From Candidatus Moraniibacteriota bacterium (GTDB lineage Bacteria; Patescibacteriota; Minisyncoccia; Moranbacterales; UBA2206), in assembly GCA_030645735.1 (NCBI GenBank), contig JAUSNP010000006.1, forward strand, positions 260,824 through 324,823: DNA of 64,000 nt. The letters run 5' to 3'. The notes below the pieces were generated by a model, which had not been told where the DNA came from, searched no databases, and saw only the letters and a program-made list of their open reading frames with translations. This document shows positions 5,132 through 56,224 of the stretch, piece after piece; within the stretch, counting starts at the first letter, position 1, and each line of letters opens with the position of its first letter. The position numbers were made by a program, and so were the translations under genes.

Positions 5132-5548
5132 GGATTTTCAAGGCAAATCTATAAGCCGGATTTTGTTGAAAGAAATCATTTATCTAGGCCAAACATTGCT
5201 GATTGGCTCTTGCAGTACCCGCCAATACGAAACACTATAAACTTCATCGAAACACTATCATGAAATTCACAATGCTTCGCATTGGCGTACGACCTTGCAT
5301 CTAGGTAAGGATTTAGCCGTTTCACTCCTCGACTTCACTCAGAGCAAGCCCTAAGTTTATTTCGAAGACTATTCCGCTTTTATACGGAATCTGCAATCCT
5401 TTCGAATTACAGCGTCTCTGCTCGCACCTCGTAGGTTACCCTAGACGGGTATTACCCGCTACCGATCCATTGCAAAGCAATGGTTGATGTCCGGACTTTC
5501 CTCCTCGACTTTGACGTCGAGGCGATTTCTCAATTTACCTTGAAAATT
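5132..5548 (-). ncRNA. rnpB: RNase P RNA, bacterial type
   Basis: Minus-strand reading contains the P4 5' strand GAGGAAAGTCCGGAC, the element GGCCTAGATAAATGATT (E. coli: GGCCUAGAUGAAUGACU), and the P4 3' strand ACAAAATCCGGCTTATAG. A P1 helix pairs tttcaaggtaaat with atttgccttgaaa at the two ends. Confidence 0.8.
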
Positions 5549-11598: not shown

Positions 11599-11646
11599 AT
11601 GTAAATAATACCAGCCTAAAGGCTTTCTTGCAACACTAATCAAAAT

Positions 11647-11678
11647 AAAACCAGCTTATTTGAAATAAGCTGGTTTTT
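11647..11678. terminator. Bidirectional intrinsic-terminator hairpin
   Basis: AAACCAGCTTATTTGAAATAAGCTGGTTT flanked by A and T runs, between the dsbA-like stop and the tyrS start. Confidence 0.5.
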
Positions 11679-11693
11679 ATATGAAAAGCTAGA

Positions 11694-12710
11694 TTATTGT
11701 CCAAATTTTTCATCAATTGTGCCTTGCAGGTCATCTTTACTGACTACGCCATTTTTGAGTTGATCATTGATGAAAGTGGCTGGTGTGCCAGAAAGTCCCA
11801 GACTGTCCGCCTCAACTTTGTTGGCATCAATGACAGATTGATATTGCTTTGAATCTAGACACTTGTTGAATTTATTGGTATCCAACTTGAGCGCTCGAGC
11901 ATAGTCCTTGAATTTTTGTGTGCCGGTGGTTTTACCCCATTCAGCCTGCGTGGCATAGAGCTTGTCGCCAAATTCCCAGAATTTATTTTGTTCCTGAGCG
12001 CAAGAGGCAGCCAAGGCCGCGCTATTGGCTTGTGGATGACTAGAAAGTGGCAAATGCTTATAGACAAACAAAGTCTTCTCGCCATAGGCCTTCATCGTTT
12101 CACGCACCGTGCTCCACATAAGCTTGCAATATGGGCATTGGAAATCTGAAAAAATCACCACTTTGACGGCTGAGTCTGTTTTGCCAAAAGTCGCATCATT
12201 TTCATTGACAGTCGGAGTTTGCAAATATTTCCCTGGTTCCAATCCCAATTCTTGAGTTTTCAAAACATAGTCTTCTTCTTTCTGATCAAACAAAACATTG
12301 GCTTGCGCAAAAAATTCTGTTTCTTCCAATCCCTTGTCAAAAATAAACGCTGGCAAAGTTTTGATGCTAAATTTCTCAATCAAATATTTTCCGTCCTGAC
12401 TGTTGGCATCCACTTCCTCCACTGCGATAGTTGGCAACACGCGATGGAACCACACCAACACTTCCGATGGATCACAGGCCACGCACGCATCATCACTCAA
12501 AACTTTCACGTTCATAGCTGGCTCACTATAGGCTACCCAGGTTTTGCCATTGGCTTCGAAGATGTCAGACTTGTTCAGATTTTTGGCAGAAAAACCGCCA
12601 CCCCGCACAACTTGCGCCACATCCACGAAAAGACTGCCCACAAAAAGTCCGGCCAACAAAATCACAATTGAGATTAGATTTTTAATTTTTGCTTCGTTAT
12701 TATGTTCCAT
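11694..12710 (-). CDS. Membrane-anchored DsbA-family thiol:disulfide oxidoreductase
   Basis: 338 aa. N-terminal transmembrane helix, CPYC active site, and tandem thioredoxin-like halves. Confidence 0.75.
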   Translation of the reverse strand: MEHNNEAKIKNLISIVILLAGLFVGSLFVDVAQVVRGGGFSAKNLNKSDIFEANGKTWVAYSEPAMNVKVLSDDACVACDPSEVLVWFHRVLPTIAVEEVDANSQDGKYLIEKFSIKTLPAFIFDKGLEETEFFAQANVLFDQKEEDYVLKTQELGLEPGKYLQTPTVNENDATFGKTDSAVKVVIFSDFQCPYCKLMWSTVRETMKAYGEKTLFVYKHLPLSSHPQANSAALAASCAQEQNKFWEFGDKLYATQAEWGKTTGTQKFKDYARALKLDTNKFNKCLDSKQYQSVIDANKVEADSLGLSGTPATFINDQLKNGVVSKDDLQGTIDEKFGQ

Positions 12711-37765: not shown

Positions 37766-39013
37766 TTATTTATTCTGAAAATATTTGACTATTTCAGAAT
37801 TATCCAAAGATACATATTCAACTGCTCCACTTTTTCTATTTTTAATTTCCACTTGGTTGTCACGAATGTTTTTCTCGCTGACAATCACTTGATATGGCAA
37901 ACCGATCAAATCTGCATCGGCAAATTTCACGCCCGCATTTGCCTCTCGATCATCAAACAAAACTTCTAGGCTCTTTTCAGTCAAGGCATCATAAATTTCT
38001 TGTGCCTTGTCATTTTGATTCAAGCTCAACAAATGAATTTTGAACGGCGCCACTGTTTCCGGCCAAATCATTCCCTTGTCATCATGATGCGTCTCTGCAA
38101 TCGTACCCATCAATCTTGAAATTCCTATTCCATAAGAACCCATAAAAACCAACTGACTCTCGCCTTTCTCATCCTTGTATTTCAAACTGAACGGCTCGGA
38201 AAATTTATGGCCCAACGAAAATATATTTCCTACTTCAATAGCTTTCCTCTCAACCAAACTGTTTTTATCCAAACCAAGATCTTTCAAAACTTCATCTGTA
38301 TAAACCTCTTTGTTAACAGCAATGCCTTTTTTCTCATCAATATAAATTATATCTTCACCCGCCTCACTGATTGTTTGAAATTCATGTGAATATTTGGAAA
38401 AAGATCCGCCTGAAGCGAATGTCATAAAAGTTTTATCGCCCAAACCAACTCGTTCAAAAACATTTTTATACGCAACCTTGGCTTTTTCATAATATTCATC
38501 ATGTTGCGTCTCATTTTTTGAAAAAGAATACAAAGCTTTCCAGAAAAATTCCTTGCCCCGCATGATGCCTGATTTAGCACGCGCTTCATTTCGAAAAACA
38601 GTCCTAATATCATAGACATACACTGGCAAATCTTTGTATGATGAAATAAAATTGGTCATCATATTTGACATCGGTTCTTCGTGTGTGAAAGCCAGGGCCA
38701 GTTCAGTTCCGTTTTTCAATTTAGTCTTAAACCAATTGTCCACCAAGTCATCATCCCATCTGTTGGTTTTCTTCCAAACTTCTTGTCTTTGCAACGCCGT
38801 TGATTGCATCTCAACACCACCAGTTTTATTCATTTCATCCCTGACAATATCAGCGATTTTATTCACCACTCGAAGACCCAAAGGTAAAATTGCATATACA
38901 CCTGCCATTTCCTTATATATAAACCCTGCCCGAATCAAAAGTTGAGCGTTAATACTCACTTCGTCTTTCAGGGCATCTTTTTGAGTTTTCGTAAACAGTT
39001 TTGATTGTTTCAT
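37766..39013 (-). CDS. proS: Proline--tRNA ligase, short form without the INS editing domain
   Basis: 415 aa. LLIRAGFIYKEMAGVYAILPLGLRV N-terminus, class II core, anticodon-binding domain. Confidence 0.8.
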   Translation of the reverse strand: MKQSKLFTKTQKDALKDEVSINAQLLIRAGFIYKEMAGVYAILPLGLRVVNKIADIVRDEMNKTGGVEMQSTALQRQEVWKKTNRWDDDLVDNWFKTKLKNGTELALAFTHEEPMSNMMTNFISSYKDLPVYVYDIRTVFRNEARAKSGIMRGKEFFWKALYSFSKNETQHDEYYEKAKVAYKNVFERVGLGDKTFMTFASGGSFSKYSHEFQTISEAGEDIIYIDEKKGIAVNKEVYTDEVLKDLGLDKNSLVERKAIEVGNIFSLGHKFSEPFSLKYKDEKGESQLVFMGSYGIGISRLMGTIAETHHDDKGMIWPETVAPFKIHLLSLNQNDKAQEIYDALTEKSLEVLFDDREANAGVKFADADLIGLPYQVIVSEKNIRDNQVEIKNRKSGAVEYVSLDNSEIVKYFQNK

Positions 39014-39071: not shown

Positions 39072-39101
39072 GAGAGGCATCGAAAGATTTCGATGCCTCT
39101 C
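39072..39101. promoter_or_regulatory. Perfect 14-bp-arm palindrome between the proB stop and the proS start
   Basis: GAGAGGCATCGAAA ga TTTCGATGCCTCTC. Confidence 0.4.
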
Positions 39102-39114
39102 ACTTTTGGTTAAA

Positions 39115-39864
39115 TTAATAGAATCTGGTTCCAAAATCCCTCTCTTCACAAACTGCCCGTAAAATGAAATTGTCTTCCCTGGCTGGCATCAGACAAACTT
39201 GCATCCTAGCCCGTGCCAATTCAACTAGAGTTAAGACTTTTGTTCGCATACCATCAGACCCATGACCCAATTCACTACCGCCCTTGGCACATTGCAAAAT
39301 GCTTTCAATTTCACAAGCTTTGATGCGATGCATCACTTGACCATCTAGACTCAGAAAGCCTAATTGATCAAAACCAATCACAGCTACATCTGCCTCAACC
39401 AACAAACACATCAATTTGAAAAGTTTGTCGTTATCAGCACATTGCTCGAGAGCCCTAATTTCCTCATTATCAATCACATCATTAGCATTGATAATTGGAA
39501 CCACATCAACCAGAAACGCTTCTTGCATAATCTTTTTTGTCAGACAAGTTTTCTGACTAGACACATCAATCAATTGCTCATCGGTCAACAGCATCTGCGC
39601 GCCATCGATGCCAAATTTTTCCAGCGCCAAACGAAATTCATTGGCAATGCGTATTTGTCCAACCGCTGAGCGCAAATTTTTTGAACGATTCTGATTTGCA
39701 TCACTCGCAATTGCTCCCGAAGTCACTAGAAAAACTCCCCAACCATCTCGCACAAGTTTTGCAACTTGTCTACAAACTTGCCCAATCAATTGAGAGTTGA
39801 TTTTTCCCGCACTCACCAATGTAGTTGAACCCAATTTTATGCCAACAATCTTTTTCTTTTCCAT
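39115..39864 (-). CDS. proB: Glutamate 5-kinase (no PUA domain)
   Basis: 249 aa. VGIKLGSTTL, VTSGAIA, AVGQ, GQMLLT, PIINANDVI, GSDGMRTK motifs align with E. coli ProB. Confidence 0.75.
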   Translation of the reverse strand: MEKKKIVGIKLGSTTLVSAGKINSQLIGQVCRQVAKLVRDGWGVFLVTSGAIASDANQNRSKNLRSAVGQIRIANEFRLALEKFGIDGAQMLLTDEQLIDVSSQKTCLTKKIMQEAFLVDVVPIINANDVIDNEEIRALEQCADNDKLFKLMCLLVEADVAVIGFDQLGFLSLDGQVMHRIKACEIESILQCAKGGSELGHGSDGMRTKVLTLVELARARMQVCLMPAREDNFILRAVCEERDFGTRFY

Positions 39865-39944: not shown

Positions 39945-40502
39945 TTACAAAGTACGAAAGAAGATTCCACGCTCATCCGGCACAGAAACAATCTTGCCTT
40001 CCATGAATTTTCTGGAAACAACCCGTTGTGTCCCAATGATTCTATAGCCATTTTCTTCGAAGATGGGTCGCATTTTTGAATCGAGATTTGTCCGCCCAAT
40101 TGCATACAAAAATCCATTTTGTTTGGCAATGTTCAAACACTCCTCATGCAGCTTGCTTGCGATTCCCAAGTTACGACTACTCCTTTTCACAAAGATATCG
40201 GCAATATAAATCACTTCTTCAACCTCAATACTCTGTGGAACAAAAACAACAACATCACTCTTGAGGCTAACTGGAAAAGCAAATGCTGCCCCGACAATCT
40301 TACCAAGATATGATTGCCAGCCTAGAGAAATATTTTCTGGATAGCGAATCATCTCCCTGAGCCAAGCCGCAGCCTCACCTGATGCAAAAACTTCACACCA
40401 TGGATATTCTGCAAAACACAACTCATATGTCTTGGCCAGTCTCCGCGTCATTGCGCGAGTGACCATCACACTTCTTCCCAATATTAACATGTGCTTCTTC
40501 AT
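39945..40502 (-). CDS. GNAT-family N-acetyltransferase
   Basis: 185 aa. The acetyl-CoA-binding region RNLGIASKLHEECLNIAKQNGF. A perfect hairpin GGCGAATAAGTATTTTTTACTTATTCGCC lies downstream (39896-39930). Confidence 0.6.
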   Translation of the reverse strand: MKKHMLILGRSVMVTRAMTRRLAKTYELCFAEYPWCEVFASGEAAAWLREMIRYPENISLGWQSYLGKIVGAAFAFPVSLKSDVVVFVPQSIEVEEVIYIADIFVKRSSRNLGIASKLHEECLNIAKQNGFLYAIGRTNLDSKMRPIFEENGYRIIGTQRVVSRKFMEGKIVSVPDERGIFFRTL

Positions 40503-40589
40503 ACTCTTAGCTCCTCGTTGTTTTGTTTGAAATCAAAATGAGCAACTCGTTATTGAGCTGCTCATATGTATTAAAAAGTTTTTTATTCT

Positions 40590-40670
40590 ACTTCAAAAAA
40601 ATTTCAAACACATAAAAACCGCCCAATTCTCTGGGGTTATTGTGTTGCGGATGATTGTTTATGTTTTTGA
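40590..40670 (-). repeat. Copy A of a ~110-bp 3'-flank element (hairpin-terminator plus 30-codon micro-ORF at 40578..40670)
   Basis: About 80% identical to 41545-41625. The hairpin CCCAG-agaa-TTGGG is followed by CGGTTTTT (minus-strand sense). Confidence 0.55.
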
Positions 40671-40708
40671 AATTATTCATACATTTAATTAGTACTGCGT
40701 GATTTAGT

Positions 40709-41449
40709 TTACATTTTTTGCTTATTTATCTCGTACAATACATTACTATTTTTAATCTTTTTTAATTTATAACAAACTAGATCTGGATATTGACCCACGA
40801 AAAGTGGGTAAAAGTTTTTCATCTTTTTCCAATCTTCCAACTTCAGAGTTTTTTTATTTTTTCTTTTAATTTGCCCTATGACACTAAAAAATTCTCTATT
40901 CTTCATTTCTTTTTCAATATCCACATTCCTATCGGAGTTTTTCAAAAAATCTAATAATATCTTTTTTAATTCTCTTTTTATTCCATTATCTGATTTTTCA
41001 CCACTTTCTATTTCAATGCCAACCCCATTTTTTGCAAATGTAACCAAAGAACCCTTGGTTGCACTTGAGCTAGGCCAGATTAAAATTCTTTTGATATTAA
41101 AAAGCAACGCCAGTCCTAAATTTTCTAAATTCAACTTAGTCATTATGATGAATATGCCAGTCTTTGAAACACTTCCATGCAAATCTATAACGCAATCATA
41201 TTTTTGAATTTTCTTAAAAAGCATTTCGGCTCGTCTTTCTTCATAATTGCCCATTACATCTCCTGGAAAAACCCTATTCAAATCAGACTCAATAAATCGA
41301 ACCTTCTTTTTCAAAGCCCTTGGATTTGCAATAATAGATGCAAATTTTCCACATAACTTAGTTTTGTTTATTTCTCTTATAACTTCCACGCCAATTGACT
41401 CATCACCATGCACGGCGGTTACAAGCAATATTTTCTTGTTATTTTTCAT
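40709..41449 (-). CDS. Succinylglutamate desuccinylase/aspartoacylase-family zinc hydrolase
   Basis: 246 aa. AVHGDESIG and DLHG zinc-ligand motifs. Confidence 0.6.
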   Translation of the reverse strand: MKNNKKILLVTAVHGDESIGVEVIREINKTKLCGKFASIIANPRALKKKVRFIESDLNRVFPGDVMGNYEERRAEMLFKKIQKYDCVIDLHGSVSKTGIFIIMTKLNLENLGLALLFNIKRILIWPSSSATKGSLVTFAKNGVGIEIESGEKSDNGIKRELKKILLDFLKNSDRNVDIEKEMKNREFFSVIGQIKRKNKKTLKLEDWKKMKNFYPLFVGQYPDLVCYKLKKIKNSNVLYEINKQKM

Positions 41450-41544
41450 AGTTTTTCATTGTCATTTTTAAAAGTTAAAAAAAAACAGCCCTTTCTAGGC
41501 TGGTTCTACATGCTTTCAAAAAATTATATCCATCTATTTCATAA

Positions 41545-41625
41545 TAATTTCAATCGCACAAAAACCGCCTAGTTTGCTAGGATGCCAATTTCGCGGGTGA
41601 TTGTTTATATTTTTGAAATTATTCA
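41545..41625 (-). repeat. Copy B of the ~110-bp 3'-flank element (micro-ORF at 41533..41625)
   Basis: The hairpin CCTAG-caaa-CTAGG is followed by GCGGTTTTT. It lies 3' of the HIT gene. Confidence 0.55.
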
Positions 41626-41659
41626 TATGCCTAATTAATAACATGCGTTAAATTTTTTG

Positions 41660-42112
41660 TCAACCGTTGATTTTTTTCGTCAACTCAGCTAATTTTTCAT
41701 CATCAGCTCGCTTATAGTCATGCGAGGACATGTAGCCTTCGTATGTTTCAAAGTATTTTTCAACATTGGAAGCGTGTTTGCGCCATTCGTCTGTCTTGGT
41801 GCCGTGCATGGGGAAAAGTTTGGCGTGCAAGTGATCGACGCCGAAACCTTCAAACATCAAGCCAGTGCGCCCAACGTCGGGCAATTTTTCGTCCAACAAT
41901 TTGCCGACTTTTTTGGCCGCGCCAACCAAACCCTGCAAAACTTCTTCTGGCGCGTCAAAAGCATAGCTCGGATGATGCGCTTTGGTCACCACTACCGAAA
42001 AACCTTCCGTGTTGGGAAAAATAGACAGAAAAGCTAAATGCAAATCATCCTCCCAAATTTTGTGACTCGGAATTTCACCAGCAACAATTTTACAAAATAT
42101 ACAATCAGACAT
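41660..42112 (-). CDS. HIT-family (histidine triad) nucleotide hydrolase/transferase
   Basis: 150 aa. CIFCKI N-terminus and the histidine triad VDHLHAKLFP. Confidence 0.8.
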   Translation of the reverse strand: MSDCIFCKIVAGEIPSHKIWEDDLHLAFLSIFPNTEGFSVVVTKAHHPSYAFDAPEEVLQGLVGAAKKVGKLLDEKLPDVGRTGLMFEGFGVDHLHAKLFPMHGTKTDEWRKHASNVEKYFETYEGYMSSHDYKRADDEKLAELTKKING

Positions 42113-42156: not shown

Positions 42157-42813
42157 TTATTCTAATTCTGGTGCCGTGCTCGCGTCAGAGCTGATTGGGC
42201 AAACATCAGCGGTTGTGCTGTCACAAGGCGCAGTAGTTTCAGCACTCGCATCTTCACTTGCAACTTCCTCATCAACCACGCATTCTGCATCAGTTGCTGG
42301 ATCACATTCTTCTTCAACTACACATTCTTCATCCACCTCTGGATCGCACTCCTCTTCAACCACACACTCCTCATCAACTTCTGGATCGCATTCTTCTTCC
42401 TCAACTGGATTTTCTTCGGTATACACAATTGGATCATTACAGGAAGAAGCGTATTGTTCTTCCATATTGGTCTCGTCACAGAAAATATATTCACATTCTG
42501 GTTCATTTTCTCCACAAGTCAACGCATCACATTCTTCATCATTGGGATCGCACAATGGAATTCGACTAGCATTTCTTTTAATCACTTGAAAATACCAACT
42601 GTTTTCCTCTGGATCTTCCACGCAAGCTTCACCTTCTACAGTCGATTCCGGATCGCATTCCCACAAGAAACATTTTTCCGCATATGGGTCACAATCAGTT
42701 TGCGCTTCGATAATATAATCCTTTTTGACCATTATCTTCCAATAAGTCACCGCCACCGAACCCACAATCAACAAGGCAAAAACCGCGAAAAGAATTTTAG
42801 ATTTTTTGTCCAT
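42157..42813 (-). CDS. Membrane-anchored acidic cysteine-rich repeat protein (about seven CDPxxDEEC-type repeats)
   Basis: 218 aa. N-terminal transmembrane helix. Then TDCDPYAEKC, WECDPEST, LCDPNDEEC and three near-identical EECDPEVDEECVVE units, which are visible as 42-bp tandem DNA repeats. Confidence 0.6.
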   Translation of the reverse strand: MDKKSKILFAVFALLIVGSVAVTYWKIMVKKDYIIEAQTDCDPYAEKCFLWECDPESTVEGEACVEDPEENSWYFQVIKRNASRIPLCDPNDEECDALTCGENEPECEYIFCDETNMEEQYASSCNDPIVYTEENPVEEEECDPEVDEECVVEEECDPEVDEECVVEEECDPATDAECVVDEEVASEDASAETTAPCDSTTADVCPISSDASTAPELE

Positions 42814-45969: not shown

Positions 45970-46040
45970 CACGGGTGGAAGGAGTCGAACCCTCACCAAA
46001 GGTTTTGGAGACCTCCGTTCTACCGCTAAACTACACCCGC
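45970..46040 (-). tRNA. tRNA-Trp (anticodon CCA)
   Basis: Cloverleaf: acceptor GCGGGTG/CACCCGT, anticodon loop CTCCAAA, T-loop TTCGACT, discriminator G. Confidence 0.75.
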
Positions 46041-46167
46041 CCGCCTCATTTGCCAATGAAATGAAAAATACCTACTCTCCGATTTTCATTAAGCTATAAA
46101 AATCATATTCGTAAAAATAATCTCACTAGCAAATGTGGCGGGCACGCCCAAATGGACATACCAAAGA

Positions 46168-46332
46168 TTATTTCGCTTCTTTGTGCACTGTGTGAACCTT
46201 GCATTTCTTGCAATGTTTTTTCATTTCCAACTTTTCTTTCAACATCTTCTTGTTACGAGTTGTGAAATAGTTAGTTGATTTGCAGACTTCGCATTTCATC
46301 TTCGCTAGATTGTCGTTGCCTTTTTTTGCCAT
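46168..46332 (-). CDS. rpmG: 50S ribosomal protein L33
   Basis: MAKKGNDNLAKMKCEVCKSTNYFTTRNKK...KKHCKKCKVHTVHKEAK (54 aa from the ATG at 46332). The listed ORF is over-extended at its 5' end. Confidence 0.85.
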   Translation of the reverse strand: MAKKGNDNLAKMKCEVCKSTNYFTTRNKKMLKEKLEMKKHCKKCKVHTVHKEAK

Positions 46333-46428
46333 AATATTTTCGTGGAACGTGGAACGTGGAACGTAAATCATTGATAGGATATACGTTTCGCGTTATGCGT
46401 TTTGCGTTATATGATTTACAAATTATTA

Positions 46429-46501
46429 ATTTCGCTTGAGCCGTTGAGCAGAATCGAACTGCTGACCTCATCCCTACCAAGGATGTGCTCTACCAACTGA
46501 G
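46429..46501 (-). tRNA. tRNA-Thr (anticodon GGT)
   Basis: GCCGTTGTAGCTCAGTTGGTAGAGCACATCCTTGGTAGGGATGAGG...TTCGATTCTGCTCAACGGCT. Confidence 0.8.
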
Positions 46502-46626
46502 CTACAACGGCAACTTCATTACAATAACCAAATTCCAAGATACAAACATCAAACAAATTTCAAAATTCAACATGGATATTTTTTGGAATTTGTTATTTGT
46601 TTTTTTGGTTTTTGTCACGAAGTGAC

Positions 46627-46712
46627 TGGTGGGCAGAGAGGGAGTCGAACCCCCGTAGACCGAAGTCGACAGATTTACAGTCTGTTGTAATTGACCACTC
46701 TACCATCTGCCC
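46627..46712 (-). tRNA. tRNA-Tyr (anticodon GTA), long variable arm, CCA encoded
   Basis: GGGCAGATGGTAGAGTGGTCAATTACAACAGACTGTAAATCTGT...GGGGGTTCGACTCCCTCTCTGCCCACCA. Confidence 0.8.
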
Positions 46713-46728
46713 ATTTTCAACAACCCAG

Positions 46729-46800
46729 AGCCGCCTTTCGGATTCGAACCGAAAACCTACTGTTTACAAAACAGTTGCTCTACCGTTGAGCTAAGGCGGC
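46729..46800 (-). tRNA. tRNA-Thr (anticodon TGT)
   Basis: GCCGCCTTAGCTCAACGGTAGAGCAACTGTTTTGTAAACAGTAGGTTTTCGGTTCGAATCCGAAAGGCGGCT. Confidence 0.75.
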
Positions 46801-54363: not shown

Positions 54364-55272
54364 ATGCAAATCGAAACTATTGGTGACCTGCAAAAAGAAT
54401 ACTTTGGCAAAATCGATCATCTCGATTTGGATTTGATTGTGGCGCATTCAATCAAAAAAACTCGGGAATTCGTGATGTCACATCCCGAACACAAGCCCAC
54501 AGGCGCCCAATTGGCCAAAATCAAGACATTTGCCCAGCGAAGGGCCAAACACGAGCCCTTGGCCTATATTTTGGGTCACAAAGAGTTCTTCGGCCTGAAT
54601 TTCAAAGTTTCGCCGGATACCCTGATTCCCCGACCGGAAACGGAGTTGCTCGTTGAACTCGCAATGCAAAACGTGGAACGTGAAACACAAAACGCAAAAT
54701 CGTTACACGATATGCGTTACACGATATGTGACATCGGCACTGGCAGTGGGAATATAATAATCTCAGTTGCAAAAACAATGACCATTGACCGATTACCGAT
54801 GATCAACTTTTTTGCTATCGACATTTCCAAAGAGGCTTTGAAGATTGCCAAACAAAATGCCAAGATCAACGCAATTTCTGACAAAATAAAATTTATCCAT
54901 GGAAATCTATTAGATCCAATTATAAAAAATCCTACCAACTACCAACTACCAACTACCAACTTAGTTATTCTGGCTAATCTTCCCTACCTCTCTCAAGAGA
55001 TTTATTCCGCCACCCTGCCCAATGTCAAAAAGTTTGAACCCAAGTCCGCCCTCTGGAGCGCCAAAGAAGGTTTGGATCATTATGAAAAATTATTACAACA
55101 AATTGCAGAGCTAAAATCGTGTTATATATTTCATGTTTCATGTTTCATGGAAATTAGCCCCGAACAAAAAACCAAACTTCCCAAAATTATCAAAAAGCAT
55201 CTTCCTCAAGCAAAAACACAATTCCACAAAGACTTAGCTGGCAAGTGGAGAGTTTGTGCAATTAAAGTTTAA
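54364..55272 (+). CDS. prmC: Release factor glutamine N5-methyltransferase (HemK)
   Basis: LAYILGHKEFFGLNFKV, RPETE, DIGTGSGNI, and NLPY in place of NPPY. It contains a 7-bp x4 tandem repeat at 54932-54959. Confidence 0.75.
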   Translation: MQIETIGDLQKEYFGKIDHLDLDLIVAHSIKKTREFVMSHPEHKPTGAQLAKIKTFAQRRAKHEPLAYILGHKEFFGLNFKVSPDTLIPRPETELLVELAMQNVERETQNAKSLHDMRYTICDIGTGSGNIIISVAKTMTIDRLPMINFFAIDISKEALKIAKQNAKINAISDKIKFIHGNLLDPIIKNPTNYQLPTTNLVILANLPYLSQEIYSATLPNVKKFEPKSALWSAKEGLDHYEKLLQQIAELKSCYIFHVSCFMEISPEQKTKLPKIIKKHLPQAKTQFHKDLAGKWRVCAIKV

Positions 55273-55671: not shown

Positions 55672-55827
55672 CTATTTCTTTTTCTTTTTTGCTACAACTT
55701 TCTTTTTAGCTACTTTCTTTACTGCCTTTTTAGCTACTTTTTTTACAGCTTTTTTTGCAACTTTTTTTACTGCCTTTTTTACAGCTTTTTTTGCAACTTT
55801 TTTTACTGCTTTCTTTTTTGCTGCCAT
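55672..55827 (-). CDS. Lys/Ala-rich histone H1-like 'KKAV' repeat DNA-binding protein (51 aa); not in the supplied ORF track
   Basis: Manual minus-strand translation from the ATG at 55825-55827: MAAKKKAVKKVAKKAVKKAVKKVAKKAVKKVAKKAVKKVAKKKVVAKKKKK, ending at TAG. Shine-Dalgarno AAGGAAGGTGA lies 8 nt upstream. Confidence 0.6.
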   Translation of the reverse strand: MAAKKKAVKKVAKKAVKKAVKKVAKKAVKKVAKKAVKKVAKKKVVAKKKKK

Positions 55828-56224
55828 GTGGGTTTCACCTTCCTTTCTATTTTTAGTTTTATTTTTATACTTTTTTGTTTCGACCTTTTTATTTCGTCAG
55901 GAATATTTTTTAAAATTAAAAAATATTTCTCAACTACATAAATTATATAACATTTAAATTTATTTGCAATAGCAAAAAGTTATCCACAGGGCAAATTTTT
56001 TAACTTTCATTTTTTATTTTCTATTTTAAAAAATAATTTATTTTGCTTTTTGAAAAACATTGGGTGATTCTAAGTTAAAAGTTAAAAAATTAAAATTACA
56101 AAATCCAAATCACAAATCACAAACAAATCACAAATCTCAAAATTTTAAATAAAATCTAAATTTAAAAATTTAAAAAAACTTTCCGCGCCTTGCGTAGTGC
56201 GTTTCTAAATTTAATTGTCATCCC

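Follow-up and report, generated by a model that had tools for sequence, protein, structure and literature searches.

Paired leaders beside an AstE-like gene in a Moranbacteria genome are candidate ribosome-mediated transcription attenuators

The 64-kb stretch of DNA analysed here, contig JAUSNP010000006.1 positions 260,824 to 324,823 of a Candidatus Moraniibacteriota bacterium (the window, to whose positions all window coordinates refer), carries two similar elements on its minus strand, where the genes run in the order HIT, leader B, AstE/AspA-family, leader A, GNAT, ProB-like kinase and ProRS. Leader B stands 5' of the AstE-like gene and leader A 5' of the GNAT gene. The two copies are paralogous 5' leaders in series along one gene string and not insertion scars. 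Reading the anatomy of the leaders, their RNA folds and the evidence from their open reading frames (ORFs) with the established logic of trp-type attenuation, we propose, with a probability of roughly 60%, that each copy is a promoter-proximal, ribosome-mediated transcription attenuator of the trp type, often on a leaderless transcript. The broader claim, that the elements are terminator/antiterminator leaders controlling the genes downstream, is very probably correct. On this reading, leader B gates the AstE-like gene, and the GNAT and ProB-like kinase genes are under the control of leader A.

A repeat search of the window returned the direct pair 40573-40694 / 41519-41640 (122 nt, 74% ungapped identity, spacing 946), and alignment of copies A and B by MAFFT gave a mean column identity of 80%, in agreement with an earlier note on this DNA, which had described direct repeats of about 80% identity 3' of the HIT and AstE-like genes. 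The 34-nt core ATGAATAATTTCAAAAAYATAAACAATCAYCCGC has exactly 2 occurrences in the window, with 0 expected (100 shuffles). Homology is wider than that note had drawn it, reaching over 40530-40688 and 41477-41634, and each copy measures about 155-190 nt. Both contain the hairpin with paired substitutions that had been noticed (CCCAG/TTGGG at 40622-40635; CCTAG/CTAGG at 41568-41581), with a U-run after each, and the two 30-codon ORFs are present at 40588-40680 and 41534-41626. Each copy also has a second, much stronger terminator hairpin about 35 nt past the ORF stop (40538-40565 in A; 41486-41502 followed by T9 in B). The small hairpin had been read as the terminator; it is instead the hairpin of regions 1:2, a pause or anti-antiterminator element within the ORF, and some 60 nt separate it from the real terminator further downstream.

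We gathered relatives from contigs with AstE-like homologs, by a two-block pattern scan of genome and metagenome collections, and by a protein search with a tandem peptide profile; copies on the gathered contigs were identified with nhmmer and a covariance model. The search for further copies that the earlier note had suggested thus yields 2 copies in the 64-kb window and, with the relatives, 14 distinct canonical copies from about 11 related Moranbacteria/Parcubacteria contigs, together with 3 longer variants. The canonical set comprises winA and winB (leaders A and B), L002 (=L014), L004 (=L009), L006, L007, L010, L011, L013, L015a, L015b, L021, L022 and L024, and L015a and L015b are also present on L019 and L020. 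All copies come from Parcubacteria/Moranbacteria-type contigs. A relaxed form of the two-block pattern matched 12 loci, five of which (L008, L012, L016, L017, L018) we rejected as chance matches; these are gut, Bacteroidia or Clostridia contigs with in-frame stops or with matches inside genes. A back-translated MNNFKNINNHP pattern had no match in the genome-contig scan, and Rfam 15, searched at the gathering threshold and at E<=10 with T-box and riboswitch families included, returned only noise (snoRNA, miRNA, TCV_H4).

Every copy lies on the same strand as the next gene and directly upstream of it, with the promoter on its other side. WinB is followed by the AstE-like gene and winA by GNAT185 and the kinase, while the copies in relatives precede GNAT179, AstE and ProRS (L004); a 403-aa unknown protein, M19 dipeptidase, Asp/Glu racemase, AstE and ProRS (L002); GNAT337 (L006, L015a); the kinase (L015b, L011), followed by ProRS in L015b; HisG, followed by ProRS or HisI (L007, L022, L021); a HAD hydrolase, nucleoside hydrolase, AstE and ProRS (L024); and a HAD-like gene (L010). 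The genes upstream of the copies are mutually unrelated (HIT, GcpE, NUDIX-like, PALP, DUF169 and others). The elements, described at first as 3' appendages of HIT and AstE, are better assigned to the AstE-like and GNAT genes as 5' leaders that carry promoters of their own. They could also be plain intrinsic terminators of the HIT and AstE genes, a generic module, since hairpins with U-runs do stand 3' of both genes and read-through from HIT or AstE would end there. We regard this as very improbable: the upstream genes differ at every locus while the position relative to the downstream gene start is constant, and a plain terminator needs neither a conserved promoter, nor an invariant AUG with an ORF, nor the covarying antiterminator described below.

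The same genomic context speaks to the origin of the repeats, which the earlier note had interpreted as the footprint of a cassette insertion or duplication around the AstE-like gene; a mobile repeat, such as a miniature inverted-repeat transposable element (MITE) or an attC-like site, would be a variant of this idea. Two direct copies do flank exactly one gene of the window, and their first 34 nt are identical at 32/34 positions, which suggests recent duplication or gene conversion. However, AstE orthologs adjoin ProRS without flanking copies in L002 and L004, and the gene bracketed by two copies in L015 is a GNAT gene. In relatives, copies stand singly or in pairs 5' of unrelated genes; the earlier note had itself named copies beside many unrelated genes as evidence against a cassette. 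There are only two copies in the 64-kb window and 1-2 at each related locus, all are oriented with the downstream gene, and no integrase or transposase was found adjacent. We consider the cassette reading highly improbable, already contradicted as it is by the context in relatives.

The near-identity of the two leaders is limited to these 34 nt (41593-41626 versus 40647-40680), the remainder being about 70% identical. The 3' half of copy B (CCUAG/CUAGG and the CAGCCUAG terminator) resembles an MNSFN subgroup from other genomes, and the two observations together suggest gene conversion or a recombinant origin. Elsewhere in the window the covariance model matched 11645-11783 (E = 0.018), where an ordinary terminator follows a gene; this is no third copy.

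The promoter and terminator of the leaders were analysed in an alignment of 13 copies in which column 9 is the A of the ATG. The promoter, TTGACA followed by a 16/17-nt spacer and a TG-extended -10 element (TTGACA-16/17-TGnTAnnn), is found in 12/13 copies. The distance from the end of the -10 element to the ATG is 6-8 nt in 7 copies and 19-20 nt in 5 copies. Judging by this geometry, transcription should start at the AUG or at most about 2 nt away in the 7 copies, which would make their transcripts leaderless. An intrinsic terminator is present in every copy as a GC-rich stem with U5-U9, with compensatory changes in 6 pairs, and the distance from the U-run to the ribosome-binding site (RBS) or start codon of the downstream gene is about 15-70 nt. 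No promoter-like sequence is evident between terminator and downstream gene across the copies. There is thus no room for a promoter after the terminator, and the downstream genes depend on transcription through it.

Two alternative folds of the leader RNA are supported by the alignment. The first, the OFF fold, consists of helix P1 (columns 15-22/85-92), which joins codons 3-5 to codons ~26-27, hairpin P2 (54-58/66-70) and the terminator (137-146/153-162). Paired cells make up 91.9% of this fold, whereas controls with partners slid by 1-3 columns reach 26-56%; 10 pairs are changed on both sides, and the observed covariation score was reached by 0/500 shuffles. P1 contains the compensatory pairs 16/91 (AU:7, GC:5) and 20/87 (CG:6, UA:5), and RNAalifold independently finds P2 and the terminator. 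The outer helix that RNAalifold proposed at columns 3-10/79-86 was dropped in favour of P1, as it shows only one-sided changes and lies partly upstream of the predicted start site.

The second, the ON fold, joins region 2 (CUAGGCKGUUUUURUGYGUUURAA, columns 66-89) to region 3 (...AUACAUA..CAGCCUAG, columns 120-146) in an antiterminator of about 24 bp, which uses up the terminator's 5' arm. Pairing extends to 88.4% of the cells in this fold, as opposed to 30-50% in slid controls, the score was again reached by 0/500 shuffles, and there are 5 compensatory pairs, including 66/146 (CG:6, UA:6), 68/144 (AU:10, GC:3) and 71/141 (CG:11, UA:2). Columns 56, 68, 144 and 155 change together, as U-A-U-A/G or as C-G-C-G, which demonstrates the co-evolution of all four regions. 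Region 3 can choose its partner because regions 2 and 4 are near-duplicates (CUAGGCUGUUUUU). The view that the covarying hairpin belongs to a functional RNA is thus borne out by covariation across homologs. In the computed energies of the single copies, the 5' hairpin ranges from -14 to -24 kcal/mol, the antiterminator from -17 to -29 and the terminator from -9 to -20, and the antiterminator is stronger than the terminator alone in 12/13 copies, with L013 as the exception. Antiterminator and terminator exclude one another, and the pairing of the upstream segment with region 2 in turn excludes the antiterminator. The copy A fold including its terminator reaches z = -4.3, the sole significant single-sequence fold.

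In leader B, the -35 element TTGACA (41658..41663) overlaps the HIT stop codon, and the extended -10 (TGT TATTAA, 41635..41643), set off by a 17-nt spacer, ends 8 nt 5' of the ATG. The leader ORF (41534..41626) has 30 codons and a TAG (MNNFKNINNHPRNWHPSKLGGFCAIEIIMK) and no Shine-Dalgarno sequence; an additional in-frame upstream ATG in this copy would yield 36 aa. The 5' strand of P1, AAUUUCAA in codons 3-5 (41613..41620), pairs with its 3' strand UUGAAAUU (41546..41553). P2, CCUAG-CAAA-CUAGG followed by U5 (41568..41581), is the hairpin of the earlier note. Region 2 (CUAGGCGGUUUUUGUGCGAUUGAA, 41549..41572) has either the 5' half or region 3 as its partner, and region 3 (UGAAAGCAUGUAGAACCAGCCUAG, 41495..41518) supplies the 3' strand of the antiterminator, its last 10 nt being the 5' arm of the terminator. 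The terminator, CAGCC-UAGAAAG-GGCUG with U9 (41477..41504), ends 27 nt 5' of the start codon of the AstE-like gene.

Leader A is organised in the same way. Its -35 position overlaps the AstE stop codon within a degenerate promoter (TGTAAA-N17-AATTAA, 40681..40713), and TTGACA is missing from this copy alone; read-through from AstE probably feeds it as well. The ORF, again 30 codons and a TAG (MNNFKNINNHPQHNNPRELGGFYVFEIFLK, 40588..40680), is an annotated gene in the identical Logan contig L001. The P1 5' strand (40667..40674) has its partner at 40600-40607, P2 (CCCAG-AGAA-UUGGG followed by U5) occupies 40622..40635, region 2 together with the P1 3' strand (UUGGGCGGUUUUUAUGUGUUUGAAAUU) 40600..40626, and region 3 (UUUUAAUACAUAUGAGCAGCUCAA) 40553..40576. 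The terminator, AUGAGCAGCUC-AAUAAC-GAGUUGCUCAU followed by UUUUGAUUU (40530..40565), is succeeded by the RBS GAGGAG.

The leader ORF is preserved as an open frame. The ATG is invariant and an ORF of 28-30 codons is present in 14/14 canonical copies, so that start, frame and length are conserved as the earlier note had expected; a start or stop that varied between orthologs, which it had named as evidence against its proposal, is not what we see. In 13 copies over 28 codons, this frame contains 0 in-frame stops, while the two alternative frames have 28 and 43; any single sequence would stay open by chance with a probability of about 0.1-0.5. The sole indel within the ORF, in L006, is 3 nt long, and the stop codons all fall just past the 3' strand of P1. 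The third base of a Pro codon covaries with that of a Leu codon (CCC..UUG versus CCU..CUA), a synonymous change that keeps the pairing. The comparison of nonsynonymous with synonymous substitution (dN/dS) between copies, another check that had been suggested, gives Nei-Gojobori values of 0.11-0.49 (ten pairs), and substitutions by codon position number 132/146/206; both signals are confounded by RNA-structure constraint and by the relatedness of the sequences, and the statistics are descriptive only.

The three longer variants (L022:2258-2510, L021:2865-3060 and L024:1448-1690), which precede MFS transporter or GNAT genes, have the same promoter, 45-50-codon ORFs, an additional internal hairpin and a different terminator (CCTCGGCT...AGCCGAG), and they keep the three-way pairing logic of the canonical copies. 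They read the conserved GGCGGUUUUUGUG motif (also given as GGCGGTTTTTGTG) in another frame, as A-V-F-V and not as G-G-F-Y-V. Codons 6-17 are hypervariable, and the conserved C-terminal residues coincide with paired RNA. It is the open frame across the hairpin that is conserved and not the peptide.

We therefore rejected a conserved functional microprotein, on the grounds of the hypervariable middle, the coincidence of conserved residues with paired RNA and the different frame in the longer variants. The element might more generally be an independent duplicated small gene, encoding a microprotein of about 30 aa or a small RNA of about 150 nt, possibly trans-acting and merely adjacent to the genes it precedes. 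It has its own promoter and terminator, its dN/dS is below 1, the C-terminal motif LG[GC]F[YC]VF[EK] is conserved, some assemblies annotate the ORF as a gene, and attenuator RNAs and leader peptides can act in trans elsewhere (rnTrpL/peTrpL). We nevertheless judge this reading improbable, given that the peptide middle is hypervariable, the motif lies in the other frame in the longer variants and the conserved residues fall on base-paired RNA; the covarying antiterminator would have no role, and the downstream genes, which have no promoter of their own in the short gap, depend on read-through. A search with a tandem profile of 11 peptides against 5.8 billion proteins found 4 called ORFs, all from these loci. 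A ribosomally synthesized and post-translationally modified peptide precursor, or a microcin-C-like system, as the HIT, GNAT and carboxypeptidase-like neighbours might suggest, was also rejected: the peptide is hypervariable, no core of modifying enzymes is shared by the loci, and the downstream genes vary.

Based on these features, the proposed attenuator would work as follows. Without a ribosome on the leader, the A/C-rich 5' half would pair with region 2 first, regions 3:4 would form the terminator, and transcription would stop. A fast ribosome crossing region 2 to the stop codon would block 2:3 pairing, so that termination would ensue in this case too. If a ribosome began translation at the AUG, which is often leaderless, and came to a halt at about codons 3-14, it would cover the 5' strand and leave region 2 free, a stall at codons ~12-14 also covering the 5' arm of P2; the free region 2 would form the 24-bp antiterminator with region 3, and RNA polymerase would read into the structural gene. 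P2 and the U5 that follows it inside the ORF plausibly serve as a pause (the 1:2 element) that synchronises ribosome and polymerase.

The same RNA switch might be flipped by a trans factor (an RNA-binding protein, uncharged tRNA, a small molecule or an antisense RNA) acting on the 5' half, with the ORF incidental and untranslated. This alternative seems unlikely to us, although more deserving of attention than the other rivals. Both folds are well supported, while the case for translation of the ORF is drawn from sequence; the ORF lacks a Shine-Dalgarno site and an obvious regulatory codon run, and the A/C-rich 5' strand could by itself bias the codon content. On the other hand, the 31-nt segment between P1 and P2 is nearly devoid of conserved nucleotides or sub-structure and shows no aptamer-like core or protein-binding repeat, the Rfam search gave no match at E<=10, and a trans factor leaves the invariant AUG, the 0 versus 28/43 stops, the 3-nt indel and the 45-50-codon ORFs of the variants unexplained.

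Several points weigh against ribosome-mediated attenuation as we propose it, besides the confounding of the substitution statistics. Region 2 lies inside the ORF and not past its stop as in trpL, which makes the fast-ribosome branch of termination a kinetic argument. The 5 copies with the longer promoter-to-ATG distance have a predicted 5' untranslated region of about 13 nt, so that their initiation is not leaderless in the strict sense. Before the leader ORF a Shine-Dalgarno site is lacking in every copy, as opposed to the AGGAGG-like sites of most downstream genes, and no one regulatory codon occurs in a run. When the 122-nt core is folded as a single sequence, its z-scores do not stand out (-0.7 to -1.9), and in leader A the promoter is degenerate and the U-run weaker. 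Finally, transcription start, translation of the ORF and termination are all deduced from the DNA sequence.

The signal is most likely a shortage of charged tRNA or slowed elongation. Codons 2-17 are enriched in Asn (5x), His (6-9x), Pro (3x) and Trp codons and no codon run is conserved; the enrichment singles out no one regulatory amino acid, and it is confounded by the A/C-richness that the 5' strand needs for pairing with the U/G-rich region 2. Proline-specific sensing, considered since ProRS is often downstream, was rejected: two leaders have no Pro codons, and the ProRS gene of the window has its own promoter. With low confidence, we favour a general sensor of slow translation or tRNA charging, because there is no conserved codon run, the enrichment is confounded and the regulated genes are heterogeneous. 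A bolder extension would be a clade-wide Moranbacteria/Parcubacteria slow-translation sensor, in which a leaderless leader-ORF family without a codon run couples tRNA charging or elongation rate (or nascent-peptide arrest by the LGGFYVFE tail) to a scavenging regulon of HisG, the ProB-like kinase, the AstE-like deacylase, GNATs, the nucleoside hydrolase operon and MFS transporters, and in which the abundant terminated RNA or the peptide might also act in trans. We offer this as a speculation with rather long odds; if it is true, no regulatory RNA regulon and no evidence of transcription-translation coupling would have been described before for bacteria of the candidate phyla radiation (CPR).

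The closest known parallels are the trpL, hisL, pheL/pheM, thrL and ilv leaders of Proteobacteria. Like them, the Moranbacteria leaders have a promoter-proximal short ORF, regions 1:2, 2:3 and 3:4, a mutually exclusive antiterminator and terminator, the latter just before the first structural gene, a possible 1:2 pause, and a link to genes of amino-acid metabolism (here HisG and the ProB-like kinase). They differ in having no sequence or covariance-model similarity to these leaders and no cognate codon run, in the position of region 2 inside the ORF with the stop codon after it, in the missing Shine-Dalgarno site and apparently leaderless transcript, in their Patescibacteria/CPR host, and in the reuse of one family 5' of many functionally different genes. 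In pyrBI-type and antibiotic-inducible erm/cat leaders, translation status and not a cognate codon run decides the RNA fold, and the leader contains a U-rich pause segment. Our leaders share with these the proposed dependence on leader-ORF translation status and the putative U-rich pause segment, whereas they precede no pyrimidine or resistance genes and contain no known arrest motif, and their ORF stops short of the terminator, unlike that of pyrBI. T-boxes and metabolite riboswitches likewise place a competing antiterminator and terminator 5' of aminoacyl-tRNA-synthetase-linked and amino-acid genes, but in the present leaders neither a conserved aptamer nor a specifier loop nor a T-box sequence is present, Rfam gave no match, and their putative sensor segment is hypervariable yet kept as an open reading frame. 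According to a preprint account, leaderless polycysteine short ORFs of mycobacteria, the first cistron of their operons, attenuate the downstream operon genes depending on translation of the short ORF, and these ORFs contain runs of Cys codons and are responsive to cysteine (bioRxiv 10.1101/834739, Canestrari et al.). As far as that account goes, the likeness lies in the leaderless short ORF; our leaders have no codon run and instead a canonical terminator/antiterminator pair with a U-run.

Limited literature searches turned up no attenuators described from Patescibacteria/CPR, uncultivated and genome-reduced organisms whose gene regulation is almost entirely unexplored. The leader family is previously uncatalogued, and it is a first candidate regulatory RNA family, with its regulon, in this poorly understood phylum. 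The mechanism itself is textbook, and the value of the finding lies in the phylogenetic setting and the absent codon run, not in a new principle. A conserved family of this kind would imply that these organisms regulate genes by coupled transcription and translation, probably with leaderless initiation. The leaders would also mark out, around ProRS, a small group of co-regulated genes for scavenging and amino acids, about whose functions little else can be said. For annotation, the sporadically called ORFs of 28-30 codons should be read as leader peptides, and such 'repeats' as regulatory leaders and not as scars of mobile elements. The switch is compact, supported by covariation and testable in a heterologous host.

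No copy was found at the more distant AstE loci L023 and L025. There, a GNAT and AstE-like pair (L023:6960-8708, L025:6938-8693) is preceded by a TrpR-family (PF01371) gene, and a protein repressor may replace the attenuator in these relatives.

The genes around the leaders in the window are all encoded on the minus strand. The HIT gene (42112-41660) ends with a stop codon at 41660-41662. The AstE/AspA-family gene (40709..41449) encodes 246 aa and matches Pfam PF24827, its best NCBIfam match, aspartoacylase, being under the cutoff. The two genes placed under leader A are the GNAT acetyltransferase (39945-40502) and the ProB-like amino-acid kinase (39115-39864). In the gap between the kinase and ProRS there is a perfect 13-bp palindromic hairpin (GAGAGGCATCGAAA..TTTCGATGCCTCTC, 39072-39101) without a U-run on the coding strand, after which follows the promoter of the ProRS gene itself (37766-39013), TTGGCA-17-TATTAT.

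Upstream of the HIT gene, a gene at 42157-42813 (minus strand) encodes a 218-aa protein with a hydrophobic N-terminal segment and three tandem repeats of 42 nt (14 aa; EECDPEVDEECVVE). The protein is acidic and Cys-rich and has no Pfam match, and a similar gene is found near the leader in L013. Elsewhere in the window, 12-nt periodic repeats in 9 overlapping copies (55679-55828) probably belong to a Lys/Ala-rich repeat coding region on the minus strand. Two heptamer arrays (CGTGGAA x3, then CGTTATG-like) lie 8.3 kb apart at 46341-46411 and 54658-54728, the first adjoining a cluster of four tRNA genes (45970-46800, minus strand). A bacterial RNase P RNA of class A is encoded on the minus strand at 5136-5541 (123.5 bits).

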